From Gammaproteobacteria bacterium (GTDB lineage: Bacteria; Pseudomonadota; Gammaproteobacteria; UBA1113), in NCBI GenBank assembly GCA_021156165.1, contig JAJNBM010000004.1:1-59736 (forward strand): a stretch of DNA of 59,736 nt, written 5' to 3'. A program made the translations under genes and the position numbers. Of the stretch, positions 24,460 through 30,015 are shown one piece after another. The number at the start of each line of letters is the position of its first letter. Positions within the stretch are counted from its first letter, which is position 1. The notes under the pieces are model-generated. The model saw only the letters and a program-made list of their open reading frames with translations. It ran no database searches and was not told the DNA's origin.

Positions 24460-24722
24460 GTATATTGTATCTATGGCAAAAACCAAACTGGCATGATTTT
24501 CCCAGCGCGGTATTCGATGCTACCGATGCTTGCATTTTAATAGGCGATGGTGTTTTTGCAGCGGTGTTGCAGGAAGAAAAACCTACCCTACCCTGCCCGC
24601 TCTTTATCTTGGCAGAAGATTTAGATACAAGAAAAATTTCATCGTCGCTCAATGCAACGATAATCGATGAGGCACAATGGCTACGCTTGATCTTAGCGCA
24701 CAGCAAAGTAGTGAGTTTTTGA
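24456..24722 (+). CDS. tusB: sulfur relay protein TusB/DsrH
   Basis: D...LIGDGV, L.EDL..R; operon position. Confidence 0.75.
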   Translation: MSILYLWQKPNWHDFPSAVFDATDACILIGDGVFAAVLQEEKPTLPCPLFILAEDLDTRKISSSLNATIIDEAQWLRLILAHSKVVSF

Positions 24723-25030
24723 TGATAGCGTTTACCCAAGAAGGTTATTTGGAAGATCCTAGTCTGTGGACAGAAATCCTCGCCATAGAAATAGCACAAC
24801 AAGAAGGAATAGAATTAACGTCACACCATTGGCAAATTTTACATGCGCTACGCCAGTTCTATCAGCAATATGCCCTGCTGCCCACTATGCGCGTTTTTTT
24901 AAAATACTTGCGTCAGGAATTAAAATTAAGCGATATAGACAGCGCGCAATTATATGCGTTATTTCCTAAAGGGCCTATTTTACAGGGTACTAAAATTGCA
25001 GGGCTAGCTAAGCCTAAACATTGTATTTGA
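24722..25030 (+). CDS. tusE: sulfur relay protein TusE/DsrC
   Basis: EGYL, LT..HW, LFPKGP, KIAGLAKP.HCI C-terminus; TGATG coupling to tusB. Confidence 0.92.
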   Translation: MIAFTQEGYLEDPSLWTEILAIEIAQQEGIELTSHHWQILHALRQFYQQYALLPTMRVFLKYLRQELKLSDIDSAQLYALFPKGPILQGTKIAGLAKPKHCI

Positions 25031-25690
25031 TTAGGTGAGGTCCATCACGATAGACAGTGTGCCCGTGCTAGCGCCTTGAGTATATTGACACACCGCCGCG
25101 CCTTGGGCTGTTTTTGTTATTGTATTACCGTCTTTGTCTTTCCCCACCGCCGTTACCCCTCCCCCAGTAGGATTAGTAAGGGTATAAGTTCCATATTTAT
25201 GGGTAACACCGTTCAACGTTACCGTTCCCGGAGAAGGCAAAGGTAACATGCTGGACAATTGTGTCGCTAAAGTACCGCAAATTCCGCCAGCCTTATTTTT
25301 AAAAGTAGATGTCGCACTCGTTTTAACAGGTACATTGTAAAAGCTAATACCGAGGTAATTGCCGCTGGTAGATACGACCAAAGAATTAGGTTGTATGGAC
25401 CAAGGGTTCACCGTATCAGAAGCCGCTAACAATCCCGCCGCTTGTAAATCGGCCAAAGGAACTTTGCCTGAGGTATAGTTAGGCGTTTGTGCGTAAGCAC
25501 GCACCGCATTGCCTATATCCCTTGTTATATTAATGGTGGCTACCATATTGGCATTACTATTGGCGGTTTGAAAATAAATCACAACCGCCATAATAACAAC
25601 AACCCCTACCGCCAACGCCAGCACCGTTTCCAGCAAGGTTAACCCTTTTTGTTTACAACGCATGGCTACTGTCATTGGCGAATTGTTCAC
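25031..25690 (-). CDS. type IV (IVb-like) prepilin, subtype B copy 2
   Basis: class III signal KQKG|LTLLE, hydrophobic helix, NPWS, two mature Cys; paralog of 27636-28229. Confidence 0.88.
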   Translation of the reverse strand: MNNSPMTVAMRCKQKGLTLLETVLALAVGVVVIMAVVIYFQTANSNANMVATINITRDIGNAVRAYAQTPNYTSGKVPLADLQAAGLLAASDTVNPWSIQPNSLVVSTSGNYLGISFYNVPVKTSATSTFKNKAGGICGTLATQLSSMLPLPSPGTVTLNGVTHKYGTYTLTNPTGGGVTAVGKDKDGNTITKTAQGAAVCQYTQGASTGTLSIVMDLT

Positions 25691-25709
25691 GATTTTTCCC
25701 TACCTCGGT

Positions 25710-26237
25710 TTAAAGATTACGCGTAATTTCACACAGTCCGCCGGTCGTTTTACCATCGACTGTTTGCTCTACATCACCAGTTGCAGCACCCTGCGATGCA
25801 TTAGCAACTGCCAAACAAAGAGCATCGTCATACCCAAGGCTACTAATAGTAATTGCGATCGTACCAGGTGAACCTTTATTAGTGCCCGTGCTTGCCGCCA
25901 CAGTTGCCGTGTAGTTACCCCCCCAAGGATCGCTCATTGGAGTTGGCAGATAACCCACTCCCTGCAACACACCGATAGCATCCGTCGCTGGCGCTTCTGG
26001 AGTAATTAAAGCGTTTAAAGCAGCTGATCCAGGCGCAATGTAATTGTCAGCTGCCGCCACAATAGTATTTATATCTGTCGTCGCCTTACTGGTATTCTGG
26101 CTATTCTTGGTCGAGGTATAAAATATAACCGCGGCAATCACGATCAACGCACCCACCGCTATCGCAAACATGGTTTCTAATAACGTTATACCCGCCATTT
26201 TGCTAATCGGTTTTCTCATCAACATTTGTTTCATCAC
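25710..26237 (-). CDS. type IV (IVb-like) prepilin, subtype A copy 2
   Basis: leader MKQMLMRKPISKMAG|ITLLE, DPWGG, C-terminal Cys pair. Confidence 0.88.
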   Translation of the reverse strand: MMKQMLMRKPISKMAGITLLETMFAIAVGALIVIAAVIFYTSTKNSQNTSKATTDINTIVAAADNYIAPGSAALNALITPEAPATDAIGVLQGVGYLPTPMSDPWGGNYTATVAASTGTNKGSPGTIAITISSLGYDDALCLAVANASQGAATGDVEQTVDGKTTGGLCEITRNL

Positions 26238-26354
26238 ATTATCTCCTCAAAAAATTAAAAAAACTAAAACACTTAAAAAAAAACTATTTTTCCCTTCGGC
26301 TTCAACCCCCCACATTCGGCTAAACTCTAAACCATTAGCAGAACCTTGATCTGC

Positions 26355-26374
26355 CGTAGGGGGTTGCCCCTACG
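26355..26374. repeat. collapsed REP doublet
   Basis: CGTAGGGGGTTGCCCCTACG, the two outer ends of the doublet with the centre deleted. Confidence 0.65.
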
Positions 26375-26468
26375 AATCCACTGTTGGCAGCAGAAAAAAC
26401 CTTTACCAAATCGATCTGTTTATCCTTCTCTTACCAACCCTTTCCCTTAACCGAATACCATTACCACC

Positions 26469-26972
26469 TTACAGGGTAAACACAAAACTACAGCCCGTAG
26501 TACCCGCAGTAGCCGTACCCCCAAGCGCTTGCTCAATAGCAACACAACTCTTATCCGGAGTGTCACCCGTAGGTGAGCCTAGGCTGACTATCGTGATAGT
26601 CGTTGTAGGGGTTGCGGTGCTCGTGCCTGCAGTCATTACCGCTTTGTACTCCTGCCCCCACGGATCACTCATGGGACTAGGCAAGTAATCCGCGCCTTGT
26701 AACACCGACACCGTATTAGCATTATCCGCGGTTAGGTCACTCAGCCCCCCCATTACCATATAGGTATGCGTTTGCCCCACAATGGTGTTGAGATCCTTTA
26801 CAGCCTTCGTGATATTGGCACTTTGTTTGCTTGAAGCGTAAAACGCAACCGCAGCCACCAATACCAGCGCACTAATGGCCAAGGCAAACAGGGTTTCCAA
26901 TAAAGTTAAACCCTTCATATGCCAGCCTGATTTTCTGGTTAAGATTGCGGGCATTACGCCTCTCCATTTCAT
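26469..26972 (-). CDS. type IV (IVb-like) prepilin, subtype C copy 2
   Basis: HMKG|LTLLE, DPWGQ, Cys pair; likely start ATG 26954 (GGAGAGG SD). Confidence 0.88.
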   Translation of the reverse strand: MKWRGVMPAILTRKSGWHMKGLTLLETLFALAISALVLVAAVAFYASSKQSANITKAVKDLNTIVGQTHTYMVMGGLSDLTADNANTVSVLQGADYLPSPMSDPWGQEYKAVMTAGTSTATPTTTITIVSLGSPTGDTPDKSCVAIEQALGGTATAGTTGCSFVFTL

Positions 26973-27053
26973 TTTTCAACATTGGTGCACAGTATATTAT
27001 GCCCCATAACGGACTTTATTAAGACTATCTTAATAGCGCGTTATTTACCCCAT

Positions 27054-27572
27054 TCAAGGAAATCGATAGTTAAAAGCACAATCATAACCTGCAGTCGCGG
27101 GCTCAGTTGCCAATCCACCACTAGCCTGGGCTGCTTTCCATATCGCTTGACATCGGCCATCGCCTGCGCTGGGGTTGTCCTGATTTACCTTATTTAACCC
27201 CGGGATAGCAATAGTGATATACCCAGAGTACTTAGTCAATGAAACAACATAAGGCTGTCCCCAGGGAGTATTCAAGGGATCGGGTAAAAAACCGGCGTCT
27301 TGTACCGCTTGTAATTGGGCTTCACTGCTTAAGGTTGTATCAAATTTATAACCGCTGGCTAGATAAGACTTATACCCTGCTCTAATAGCATTTAGGTCGG
27401 TCATCGTTTGGCTCACATTGGCGCTTTGTCTAATGGATTTATAGACTATCACCACAGCAATCAATACAAAAGCACCGACTGCCAGCGCAAACATCGTTTC
27501 CAAGAGCGTTAAGCCCTTCATTTGAGTTGTAGGTCGATTAATTACCATTTCAGCCACCGTTCTATTTGCCAA
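27054..27572 (-). CDS. type IV (IVb-like) prepilin, subtype C copy 1
   Basis: QMKG|LTLLE, TPWGQ, Cys pair; start uncertain. Confidence 0.88.
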   Translation of the reverse strand: MANRTVAEMVINRPTTQMKGLTLLETMFALAVGAFVLIAVVIVYKSIRQSANVSQTMTDLNAIRAGYKSYLASGYKFDTTLSSEAQLQAVQDAGFLPDPLNTPWGQPYVVSLTKYSGYITIAIPGLNKVNQDNPSAGDGRCQAIWKAAQASGGLATEPATAGYDCAFNYRFP

Positions 27573-27635
27573 AGTTTGAGCACATCATAGAACATAGGAT
27601 GGCAATACGTCAATTCAGGTAAGGCTTTTCTCTTT

Positions 27636-28229
27636 TTAGCTGAGATCCATAATGATAGCTAGAGGCCCGCCCGAAGTACCTTGGCACACAGCAGCAGCAT
27701 TGCCAGAGGGGATTGGGCACGTCGTACCACCACAGGCTGTCGTGGGCCAAGTTCCCGTCATAGCTGTACTCGTAATGTTGTAGGTAACGCCATTCAGCGT
27801 GGCGGACCCCGGAGCAGGTAACGGTAAAGAACTAGACAACTGTTGAGCTAAATTAGCACAGATGCCACTATTACTCGCCGCGCCCGGCACAGAATTAAAA
27901 TAAATTCCCATGTAATTACCACTCGTAAACACAGTGGGCGAAGTAGAGCTGGACCACGGATTAACCCTATCATTAGCAGTTAACAGACCCTGAGATTGTA
28001 AGGTAGACAAACTAATTGAACCGGGTGCATAACTAGACGTTTGTGCGTAAGTACGCACCGCATCGCTTATATTACCTACTGTTTTTATGGTAGCGGCTAT
28101 ATTAGAACTGTTCTGGATGCTTCTGAAAAAAAGTAAGATACCACCGACAATTATGATAGCTACCGCCAATGCCAGTAACGTTTCTAGCAGGGTTAAACCT
28201 TTTTGCTTATAACTCGATGTTACTGACAT
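27636..28229 (-). CDS. type IV (IVb-like) prepilin, subtype B copy 1
   Basis: KQKG|LTLLE, NPWS, four Cys; AAGGAG SD. Confidence 0.88.
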   Translation of the reverse strand: MSVTSSYKQKGLTLLETLLALAVAIIIVGGILLFFRSIQNSSNIAATIKTVGNISDAVRTYAQTSSYAPGSISLSTLQSQGLLTANDRVNPWSSSTSPTVFTSGNYMGIYFNSVPGAASNSGICANLAQQLSSSLPLPAPGSATLNGVTYNITSTAMTGTWPTTACGGTTCPIPSGNAAAVCQGTSGGPLAIIMDLS

Positions 28230-28250
28230 TGTCGATAGTCTCCTTAAGAC

Positions 28251-28697
28251 CTATAGCGGATAGGTAAACTTACAAGTAGCACCCGCCGTAACTGTAGCTG
28301 CTGTACCCACCAAACCAGTTATTGCTGTGCAATTCTTATCACCGGTACCACCTATACCACCAACGGTGATCTCAACTGTTCCGTTTGCAGTTCCGGCAAT
28401 CGTATAGGCCGAACCCCAAGGACTATTGAACGGGTTTGCTATAAAACCTCCATTTGCAAGTGTAGTATCTGTAGCCCCACTTGCTGAATTGCCAGCCGCT
28501 ATATACGATTGTACAGAAGCAACTATAGTAGTCATATCATTCACTACTTTATGGGCATTAGCGTTTGTTTTAGCCAGTATAAAGGCTGCAATTATCCCCG
28601 CCACCACTAGAAAACTAATAACTAGTGCAAGCAGCACTTCCATCATCGTAAAACCCTCCATATTACTGAAAGGTTTTCTTATTAACATTTTCTTCAT
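28251..28697 (-). CDS. type IV (IVb-like) prepilin, subtype A copy 1 (candidate major pilin)
   Basis: leader MKKMLIRKPFSNMEG|FTMME, SPWGS, Cys pair; AGGAG SD with U-rich upstream tract. Confidence 0.88.
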   Translation of the reverse strand: MKKMLIRKPFSNMEGFTMMEVLLALVISFLVVAGIIAAFILAKTNANAHKVVNDMTTIVASVQSYIAAGNSASGATDTTLANGGFIANPFNSPWGSAYTIAGTANGTVEITVGGIGGTGDKNCTAITGLVGTAATVTAGATCKFTYPL

Positions 28698-28790
28698 TTC
28701 ATTCTCTCCTAAAATTAAAAAAACACACGAAATCTTTTCATACGTCCTACTGGTAGTATAGCTTAAAAAACCAGTATAGCCAGGTTGCCC

Positions 28791-29849
28791 TTAACTTCCC
28801 AAAACTTGTGAAATAGCGTAAGTTCCCATCACCATCAATCCAGCCACACCAGCACCCAAAGCTAAAATAAGCGAGCCTAACAGCTTAGCCACTTTATTCA
28901 GCATGGCCATGCTGTTCAGTGTGGCTTGCTTACCCTGGCGCACCAAGGCATGTTCAAAGCCCTTGGCCTCAGCGATAGCGCGTAGACGTATAATATTCAC
29001 GCGATCAATTAAGCCCGTATCCAATACATCGGCAATATTGCCTTCGCCCTTACCCAAACGTCGTTCCATTAAGCGCATATGAAAACGCAAGTAAGTACTG
29101 GCTTGGCTGGAAATTAAAGTTAAGGCTTGCTTAAACACCACCCCATTCAATACCAATAATCCCAACGTTTCCATAAAACTGCCCGCCGCCAACTTGCGAT
29201 AAAGACTCAACAGCGGTAATTTGTCTATAGTGTCGCGGCCCGGACCGATATAGGTTTTCAGTACTATATTAAGCCCTATAATAAACCCAATAATTCCTAA
29301 AACAATTAGCCACCAGTCATCGGTTAAAAATTGGGCTAAGTTGTATAATACCTGACCGCTTGTTGGCCATATAGAGACAGGCTTAATTACGGCAAATTGC
29401 TCCAAAATGCCGCCCTTGCTGTTAAAACTCATGACAATACCGCAGGCAAAACTCAATACTACTAATGGATAAGTTAACTCGGAGAAGAGAGTGGATACCA
29501 CCGCTGAACGCTGCCCTAAGGCTTCCGCTGCCACACGTATATTGTGCACCATGGTGCCGCCTTGCTCACCGATACGCACTAGCTCGACGACATAATGCGG
29601 AAACCAACCCACCATGCCATCGGAAAAAGATTGTCCTTGAGCCAGTGAGCGGCGGATACTTTTAGCCGCTTTTTTCGCTGATCCTTCTAACACGCTTTCC
29701 AGTACGTCAATGGCCTTATTGGCGGGCACACCGTCTTCTACCAAGGTAGCCAAATCTTCTAAAAAACTTTGCTGATCTCCCCCGCGGAATAACATATAAT
29801 CTAACTTGGAGTCCTTGGAGTCTTTTTTGGAAAATTCTTCTTTGGCCAT
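28791..29849 (-). CDS. type IV pilus / T2SS-F family inner-membrane platform protein (PilR/BfpE/TcpE-like)
   Basis: two GspF-type repeats (L.TLVEDGVP...GEQGG; L.LLVLNGV..KQAL), three TM segments, adjacent pilins. Confidence 0.85.
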   Translation of the reverse strand: MAKEEFSKKDSKDSKLDYMLFRGGDQQSFLEDLATLVEDGVPANKAIDVLESVLEGSAKKAAKSIRRSLAQGQSFSDGMVGWFPHYVVELVRIGEQGGTMVHNIRVAAEALGQRSAVVSTLFSELTYPLVVLSFACGIVMSFNSKGGILEQFAVIKPVSIWPTSGQVLYNLAQFLTDDWWLIVLGIIGFIIGLNIVLKTYIGPGRDTIDKLPLLSLYRKLAAGSFMETLGLLVLNGVVFKQALTLISSQASTYLRFHMRLMERRLGKGEGNIADVLDTGLIDRVNIIRLRAIAEAKGFEHALVRQGKQATLNSMAMLNKVAKLLGSLILALGAGVAGLMVMGTYAISQVLGS

Positions 29850-30015
29850 AAAGCGGGTTTATCCTTTTTTCAATTGGTTTATGTGTGAATAAGCATAGAG
29901 TATATTAGGGGAAATAGCCAATTTTATATTCGGTTTAGAGCTCTTTTGCTAGGCTATAGACCATTTTATTAAAGCTAGCTTAATACAGTTTTCTGGATCG
30001 CTATGTACAGCAATG

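Follow-up and report, generated by a model that had tools for sequence, protein, structure and literature searches.

Most of what is known of type IVb pili comes from enteric pathogens and conjugative elements, where they are usually built from one major and one minor pilin. Their prepilins carry a class III signal with a leader that exceeds the type IVa length (about 13-30 amino acids, aa), and the first residue of the mature protein is often something other than Phe. The thin pilus of R64 and the related pili encoded by integrative elements are type IVb pili of the PilL-PilN-PilO-PilP-PilQ-PilR-PilS-PilV kind; the toxin-coregulated pilus (TCP) and the colonization factor antigen III pilus (CFA/III) each have one major and one large minor pilin, and the bundle-forming pilus (BFP) of enteropathogenic E. 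coli has BfpA together with the pilin-like BfpI, BfpJ and BfpK. The heteropolymeric type IV pilus of Streptococcus sanguinis, a monoderm with a type IVa-like system, joins two adjacently encoded major pilins in one fibre (8pfb). Here we analyse a stretch of 59,736 nucleotides (nt) from a gammaproteobacterial contig (JAJNBM010000004.1 of assembly GCA_021156165.1; below, the window), in which a pilus platform gene is followed by six tandem prepilin genes. The window's own genome, G000, is a metagenome-assembled genome (MAG) of 1.58 Mb in 78 contigs, 92% complete; its relatives carry handles of the same form. With a probability of roughly 0.7, we read the locus as the platform and filament part of a type IVb-like pilus that is encoded in the chromosome and goes back to the ancestor of an uncultured, small-genome order carrying Dot/Icm systems.

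The array consists of a T2SSF-family platform gene and six intact prepilin genes, named A1, B1, C1, C2, A2 and B2 in order from the platform, with all seven open reading frames (ORFs) on the minus strand (Table 1) and gaps between neighbours of 93, 21, 63, 81, 231 and 19 nt. This is the arrangement given by the first-pass annotation, made from the letters alone, which had described six tandem pilins in this order behind a PilR-like platform; the coordinates and the T2SSF match agree. All six pilins have a class III signal, in which a Gly before the cleavage site is followed by (F/L/I)T(L/M)(L/M)E, and all six have Glu5. Taken from the first possible start, leaders measure 11-21 aa; the more probable starts give 11-16 aa. 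Residue +1 runs F, L, L, L, I, L from A1 to B2 (non-Phe in five of six), and all six share P93-W94. The mature parts carry a C-terminal pair of Cys residues (2 Cys), except B1 with 4. These features had likewise been noted before, with leaders of about 11-20 aa, a Pro-Trp motif and Cys pairs. A loose scan for the class III motif over every ORF of at least 70 aa in the 1.58-Mb genome returns 16 matches, of which 6 are in the array.

BLASTP sorts the pilins into two families instead of the three paralogous A, B and C pairs first proposed: a short family, S (A1, C1, C2 and A2), and a long family, L (B1 and B2). Within S, identity is 31% for A1-A2, 34% for A1-C2, 29% for A1-C1, 40% for C1-C2, 44% for A2-C2 and 36% for A2-C1, so A1 is no closer to A2 than to C2; B1 and B2 are 46% identical. 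The shared leader that had linked A1 to A2 does not single them out, as most S pilins in the genus have MK(K/Q)ML(I/M)RKP. The likeness between S and L lies mainly in the N-terminal half, and L has a C-terminal addition of 40-60 residues. When the L profile is run against 1.84 billion representative sequences, four proteins match at E ≤ 1e-30, all at full length, and the rest of the 150 best listed matches mostly cover only the first ~130 positions. L is thus a narrow family, an S-like pilin with a lineage-specific C-terminal addition. A word-indexed search with L gives 24 proteins, 45-100% identical, of which the first is the one encoded in the window itself. B2 shares 65-74% identity with its L counterparts in G003, G004 and G006, and C2 has 11 database homologs at 60-70% identity.

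An S gene followed closely by an L gene is a recurring unit: the spacing is 12-21 nt in the window and its relatives, and 80 nt in G002. The window has two such units, A1-B1 and A2-B2, with short gaps of 21 and 19 nt, and their DNA still aligns in register: at the 5' ends of the L genes 76 nt are 80% identical, and a 36-nt stretch upstream of the S genes is 75% identical. In the A1-B1 unit, A1 scores 168 bits against the S profile and keeps all 9 of its invariant columns, and B1 scores 262.6 bits against the L profile and keeps all 39. The S. sanguinis pilus is a precedent for adjacent, co-expressed paralogous major pilins and offers one reading of the tight S-L unit; it differs in that structural similarity is weak (Z 4.0) and in that S and L are set apart by the C-terminal addition. 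A complex prediction for the globular parts of B2 and A2 scored 0.00 in both runs, which weighs neither for nor against pairing.

To place these pilins among known ones, models were built on the family alignments, with C2 for S (pLDDT 89.2) and B2 for L (pLDDT 76.4), and compared with about 48,000 representative solved chains. CofA of the CFA/III pilus (9iuf_A) matches C2 at Z 10.2 (root-mean-square deviation, rmsd, 2.8; 137 residues aligned) and B2 at Z 10.6 (rmsd 3.2; 155 aligned). For C2 and B2 respectively, TcpA gives Z 9.1 and 8.7, C. difficile PilA1 7.8 and 6.9, S. Typhi PilS 6.6 and 5.4, and the pseudopilin EpsG 6.8 and 4.7; PulG reaches Z 5.7 with the C2 model, and type IVa pilins stay at or below Z 5.0 with either. 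In these predicted models, then, the best fold match of both S and L is to type IVb major pilins, and the earlier suggestion of type IVb-like pilins, made from long leaders and a non-Phe first residue, holds up. By sequence, the S profile detects TcpA (E 2.3e-7), PulG (E 2.1e-6) and CofA (E 3.5e-5), and the nearest Atlas clusters of B2 are of the PilS/Bundlin/TcpA kind (0.96). With the L profile, only TcpA came up among PDB sequences, at E 0.12.

The resemblance to TCP, CFA/III and Longus thus covers the fold (TcpA and CofA as best structural matches, Z 8.7-10.6 over 132-155 residues), detection of TcpA and CofA by the S profile, the C-terminal disulfide pair and a TcpQ-like protein. It is limited by an identity of 15-16% in the structural alignments and by S pilins that are 40-70 residues shorter, and the system here has 3-6 small and 4 large pilins (8 large in G000). 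With BFP the locus shares several pilin-like genes per operon, and the clusters closest to B2 in the Atlas include some of the Bundlin family, whereas it has no Bundlin Pfam match, other accessory genes and no retraction ATPase seen in the cluster.

The fold comparison also bears on a secretory alternative, in which the small pilins would form a short periplasmic piston like that in a type II secretion system (T2SS), drive proteins out through the PilN-type secretin and replace an absent classical T2SS. The best folds speak against it, being fibre-forming type IVb pilins that score 2-4 Z units above the pseudopilins, as do the model scores: the pilins reach at most 21.8 bits with GspG against a cut-off of 88.85, and all of GspG, GspH, GspI and GspJ fall far below their cut-offs. 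What makes the idea worth considering is that no classical T2SS was found. G000 holds two secretins, one PilQ-like and one PilN-like and neither of the GspD kind by best model, and a single T2SSF match, the window's platform; strong T2SSE-family matches in four relatives from the genus or family are of four kinds only, namely PilB, the type IVb ATPase, PilT and DotB-like. The S matches to PulG and EpsG, and a small major subunit accompanied by a larger quartet with one member lacking Glu5, recall GspG and GspH-K, and TCP and CFA/III pili are themselves known to export TcpF and CofJ. Yet no further GspD-, GspE- or GspF-type genes are seen, GspC, GspL and GspM are not seen in the cluster (no search was aimed at them), and no gene in the inspected clusters stood out as a candidate substrate. 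We regard a secretion pseudopilus as very unlikely.

The distribution of the system argues for an inherited one. The order in question is a GTDB order of 21 genomes, here a single family; 20 of these have the platform and 19 a dedicated assembly ATPase. Platform orthologs, 33-48% identical, turn up in 25 of the 400 genomes sampled from the class, G000 among them and mostly small ones, and database relatives bear the names 'Legionellales bacterium', 'PulF' and, once, 'tcpE'. In four genera (G010, G011, G013 and G014) the platform, 3-5 small pilins and TcpQ-like, secretin, PilO-like and PilP-like genes lie in one cluster, which the ATPase (~540 aa) leads; in G011 the contig ends inside the platform gene and the ATPase is elsewhere. 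The G010 and G013 clusters also include 3-4 large pilin-like proteins. With 3-5 small pilins beside the platform in other genera of the order, the earlier remark that such systems usually encode a single major pilin does not carry over. The ATPase adjoins the platform in G010, G012, G013, G014 and G015; in the last (G015:C6, L021) the two genes stand alone, with no pilin gene after them, and therefore the dispersal of the system varies among genera. Outside the order, the single-cluster layout recurs in G067 and G228, and ATPase-platform-pilin runs in G040, G296 and G135. G067, from another family, has four tandem small pilins of 179-188 aa with near-identical N-terminal 40 residues (L049:10862-13160), an independent tandem expansion in a system of the same kind.

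Plasmids give the link to described pili. A tblastn search with the platform matched 1244 plasmid records, all below 60% identity and the best at 25-29%; the two plasmid contexts inspected have the order TcpQ, secretin, PilO, PilP, ATPase, platform, pilin. From this cluster order together with the list of parts, the system's nearest described kin are type IVb pili of the R64/TCP class. With R64 the system shares a TcpQ-like protein, a putative lipoprotein secretin of the Secretin_N_2/PilN kind, a PilO-type protein of ~410 aa and a PilP-like one, then ATPase-platform-pilin, as well as a platform of ~350 aa and long prepilin leaders. It differs in being chromosomal, flanked by housekeeping genes and vertical across the order, with no conjugation genes adjacent; in having several small major-type and four large pilin-like genes in place of one PilS and one PilV; and in that the pilus genes of this genus are scattered over at least four loci. 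Nor are a dedicated peptidase, a lytic transglycosylase or shufflon-like repeats seen here, the window having only four short inverted pairs of 16-22 nt, none of which flanks a cassette.

In G000 the remaining parts lie on other contigs, and profile searches of the window's contig gave no ATPase, secretin or peptidase match; that these three are absent from the window had been stated before, and the secretin module now proves to be on another contig, the ATPase a remnant, and pilC-pilD unassembled. Contig C64 carries in a row, uninterrupted, a TcpQ-like protein of 338 aa (TcpQ domain, E 2.7e-4), a 538-aa secretin, a 416-aa PilO-like protein and a 303-aa PilP/T2SSC-like protein. The secretin has a lipobox-like LVGC N-terminus, scores 29.6 bits with Secretin_N_2 (cut-off 23.4), and has as its best family TIGR02520, 'PilN family type IVB pilus formation outer membrane protein', at 269 bits; the nearest Atlas clusters of the 416-aa protein carry PAP_PilO (0.97). 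The TcpQ-like protein (C64:13030-14046, L026) is 224 aa in G001, and its excess here is a mid-protein run of ~12-residue repeats rich in Pro, Ala, Val and Lys (TSxxSPAVVKAP-like). According to PMC6668835, the MacSyFinder model of the type IVb pilus has pilA, pilB, pilC, pilD and pilQ as mandatory genes, allows several loci and lets the peptidase stand as a loner.

G000 also has a type IVa pilus locus, and it could be asked whether the six proteins are simply minor pilins feeding a PilA/PilB/PilQ/PilT machine, with the window's platform as its PilC. The platform is, after all, the only T2SSF gene in G000, and on contig C71 (C71:32905-33905) a 142-aa type IVa pilin is followed by a pilB cut by the contig end, with no pilC after it. 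In relatives, pilC and pilD lie 3' of pilB and were present in every genome searched, and all nine other genomes of the genus have a separate PilC of ~405-450 aa and then PilD beside PilB; the missing pilC of G000 is therefore an assembly break. In four genera, moreover, the platform and pilins sit within a type IVb-like cluster that has its own ATPase and secretin, and none of the six pilins matches a type IVa minor pilin model (the FimU/PilV/W/X/E set). By model scores the proteins classify neither as T2SS pseudopilins nor as type IVa minor pilins, and we find the latter assignment scarcely credible.

How the window came to hold six pilins can be read from its relatives. In the genus relatives examined the locus has 3-4 pilins, four at most, and wherever the contig is not cut short a single L gene closes it: G006 has a C1-type pilin, platform, S, S, L; G003 a C1-type pilin, platform, S, L; G001 platform, S, S, S, L; and G002 and G004 platform, S, S, L. 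G000 is alone in having two L pilins; seven of the nine other genus genomes have one, and none was found in two incomplete ones. The repertoire is thus expanded, as had been proposed, with L doubled only in G000 and the S-L unit present twice. At the DNA level C1, C2, A2 and B2 each align with one counterpart in the G006 locus, C1 at 73% identity with its upstream pilin, C2 at 68.5% with the first pilin after the platform, and A2 at 73%, collinear. The tree places A2 with G006_8914 (100/99) and C1 with G006_11219, G003_12366 and G005_6333 (100/100), the C1 orthologs of G003, G005 and G006 being located upstream of the platform; B2 groups with relatives' genes, and C2 does not group with its G006 counterpart. 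One-to-one correspondence in DNA covers four of the six pilins and leaves A1 and B1 as extras, A1 on a long branch of 0.9 and B1 on an end branch of 1.25 changes per site, with a best database protein identity of 52% for B1.

The spacers supply the remaining clue. In G003 and G006 a spacer lies between the C1-type pilin and the platform, and ~80 nt of it occur twice in G000, once before the platform and once fused directly to the start of C2. Since this pre-platform spacer is present twice, two whole locus versions have been joined and one platform deleted: the array is a composite of [platform-A1-B1] and [C1-spacer-(platform lost)-C2-A2-B2], and the second spacer copy is the scar of a lost second platform gene. 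The second version came either from an ancient duplication or from an unsampled relative. Of the earlier proposal that an A+B cassette was duplicated, the doubled S-L unit stands; what falls is a recent event, in view of the long-branch A1 and B1 paralogs and the joined locus versions.

The large pilins are doubled as well. G000 has two head-to-head sets of four large pilin-like genes (C31:57760-64999 and C1:1-1363; L025, L027), one encoding 360, 328, 437 and 251 aa, the other 406, ~303, ~440 and 261 aa and running over the end of C31 into C1; the ends of the two contigs have 29 nt in common, and the reading frame carries on across them. Both sets are uninterrupted, and one member of each lacks Glu5. 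Pfam and NCBIfam searches with the large pilins and with the 416-aa and 338-aa proteins of C64 gave only weak N_methyl and ComG N-terminal matches. Elsewhere in the genus the 360-aa gene is found once in eight of the nine other genomes and twice in G009, and the 251-aa gene twice in G002 and G009. We read the two S-L units and two quartets of G000 as a pair of divergent filament kits, each presumably combining one unit with one quartet, from which different fibres could be made. A bolder version has one machine building two exchangeable pili that differ antigenically and adhesively, each with a possibly heterodimeric S-L pair and its own quartet of tip pilins, and, after loss of the dedicated motor, the type IVa PilB driving both pilus systems; this we think quite doubtful.

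If the locus works as known type IVb pili do, prepilins would be inserted into the inner membrane and cut after Gly-1 by PilD, the A24 peptidase of the type IVa system. Among 25 relatives searched, this peptidase is present in one copy in 24 and in two in G014, and adjoins pilC where the region was fetched; in G000 it would be among the unassembled genes. A hexameric ATPase would polymerise the pilins on the platform, and the fibre would leave through the PilN-type secretin. S and L would be the major-type subunits, the four large pilins, including the one without Glu5, would prime and cap the fibre, and its likely role would be attachment to host cells or surfaces.

Several observations weigh against a type IVb-like pilus at this locus. 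The pilus is known here solely from genes and predicted models, and both the choice of major pilin and any adhesive role are carried over from known type IVb pili. Of the profile checks suggested by the first-pass annotation, T2SSF holds for the platform, while no match at E ≤ 1 to the Pfam families PilS (PF08805), Bundlin (PF05307) or TcpA (PF05946) is found in any of the six pilins, and N_methyl scores only 14-22 bits in them against a cut-off of 21.2. Its structural check came out mixed too: Foldseek against the PDB places TcpA and CofA in the top rows with probability 0.99-1.00, at an E of ~0.02 and with no match at or below 0.001. The mature S pilins, at 133-159 aa, are short for type IVb major pilins. 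The TcpQ domain of the C64 protein scores 21.4 bits, under the cut-off of 27, and the secretin falls just under the TIGR02520 cut-off of 287.65. No A24 prepilin peptidase match was found in the 92% complete MAG. The platform has an excess of lineage-specific changes, with 31 in G000 against 11 in G003 and 37 against 15 in G006 (p about 0.002), a 2.5-3 times excess, unlike GlyA and ArgS, where such changes are symmetric; relaxed constraint would account for the excess, and so would a retained platform of foreign origin. And the dedicated ATPase of G000 is reduced to an 84-nt 3' remnant, the last ~28 codons, on a 3.4-kb contig (C52:2355-2438, L024).

The remnant's DNA is 73-86% identical to the 3' ends of the relatives' ATPase genes and is preceded by stops; it adjoins an inverted copy of an unrelated, multi-copy gene of ~520 aa, and the gene downstream of it is syntenic with G006. 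The end of C52 overlaps that of C4 by 28 nt. No intact dedicated type IVb-like ATPase was found in the contigs of G000. We weighed a further T2SSE match, on C38 (E 5.3e-4), as a possible hidden ATPase and set it aside, since its sequence looks like that of the signal recognition particle protein Ffh. With only the remnant found, pilus activity in G000 is uncertain: the system may borrow the type IVa PilB, its ATPase may be unassembled, or it may be in early decay.

Decay leads to the reading that the system of G000 is a relic, its motor destroyed by rearrangement, its pilins and platform still open merely for lack of time since the loss, and its doubled pilins without function. An ATPase kept by 19 of the 21 genomes of the order and here broken beside an inverted paralogous gene would fit, as would a platform that evolves faster on the G000 lineage when two housekeeping genes do not, the long branches of A1 and B1, and a TcpQ-like protein swollen by a peptide repeat. 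Against a relic stand the seven genes of the array, the four genes of the secretin module and both large-pilin quartets, all uninterrupted, and the invariant columns preserved by B1 (39 of 39 in L) and A1 (9 of 9 in S). An intact ATPase may also lie in the unassembled part of a 92% complete MAG, and the type IVa PilB, present though cut by a contig end, could substitute. We judge the relic to be rather unlikely, and continue to favour a chromosomal type IVb-like pilus.

Full-text literature searches, with supplementary files unopened, turned up no paper describing a type IVb pilus or a system of this kind in this group. What appears from these sequences to be new is a chromosomal, order-wide type IVb-like pilus with several major-type and four large pilins, whose set is doubled and whose motor gene is broken in G000. 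The system is a candidate host-attachment organ in lineages whose biology has otherwise been read only from secretion systems. The composite array is a clear example, at sequence level, of how a pilin repertoire grows, with a whole locus doubled or acquired and a redundant platform then lost. Our understanding of how type IV filaments work is unchanged by these results. On the side of secretion, DotB-, DotC- and DotD-like genes lie in a row on C53 (9199-11802), DotB scoring over the T2SSE cut-off and DotC and DotD being named from gene order and size; on our reading of the sequence, G000 carries a Dot/Icm-type secretion system.

Table 1. Position of the platform, spacers and prepilin genes in the window.
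Feature	Position	Strand	Description
Pre-platform spacer, copy 1	29850-29925	-	leader/promoter region upstream of the platform; homologous to the spacer between C1-type pilin and platform in G006/G003
Platform	28791-29849	-	352 aa; PilR/TcpE-like T2SSF; Pfam T2SSF 69.2 bits (cut-off 25.2)
A1	28251-28697	-	S-type prepilin, member of the extra S-L unit; 148 aa; leader at most 15 aa; +1 Phe; mature 133 aa; 2 Cys
B1	27636-28229	-	L-type prepilin, extra fast-evolving L paralog; 197 aa; leader 11 aa; +1 Leu; mature 186 aa; 4 Cys
C1	27054-27572	-	S-type prepilin; 172 aa from first start, Met9 start likelier
Pre-platform spacer, copy 2	26973-27053	-	fused directly to the C2 start; aligns to the first ~80 nt of the G006/G003 spacer
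C2	26469-26972	-	S-type prepilin; 167 aa; Met7 start likelier, giving a 15-aa leader
C2-A2 spacer	26238-26468	-	231 nt; 7-bp GC-rich hairpin at 26356-26373; T-rich stretch and AGGAG before A2
A2	25710-26237	-	S-type prepilin; 175 aa; +1 Ile; mature 159 aa; orthologous to the relatives' S gene that precedes L
B2	25031-25690	-	L-type prepilin; 219 aa; mature 203 aa; 2 Cys; orthologous to the lone L pilin that ends the relatives' loci

The composite order could in principle reflect an assembly chimera. We reject this: a 4591-nt Logan contig from the one public run in which the stretch is present, a DNA run, covers 24500-28644 with 0 differences and so spans B2 to A1, and a simple join between strains would not remove a platform exactly at the spacer. 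No RNA run is listed for the stretch. The DNA run could itself be the source sample, and given this second contig the array is not a product of the MAG assembler alone. Housekeeping genes lie on both flanks: NrdR, SHMT, an ABC-F protein and DsrE/DsrH/DsrC-like genes on one, and ArgS, an SPOR protein and an acyltransferase on the other. With housekeeping flanks and a G+C content that is flat across the region, the array is not a mobile island. In G003, G004 and G006 the next gene downstream of the L pilin, on the other strand, encodes a P-loop ATPase of 409-463 aa (L034:8646-9947, L035:301-1530 and L037:6840-8231); it is absent from that place in the window.

Within the array, the hairpin of the C2-A2 spacer is a perfect 7 bp with a 4-nt loop and no T run after it (-15.8 kcal/mol with flanks), and the spacer may separate two transcripts, the A2-B2 unit having a start of its own. 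Scans for regulatory sites across the window say little: sigma-54 motifs number 22 against 22.4 expected, with none upstream of the minus-strand pilins, and terminator-like sites 4 against 6.2. For sigma-70 there are 15 promoter-like sites against 10.4 expected, uninformative apart from one site before C1 (27613-27584) that matches 10 of 12 positions. A1 has an AGGAG ribosome-binding site behind a T-rich stretch.

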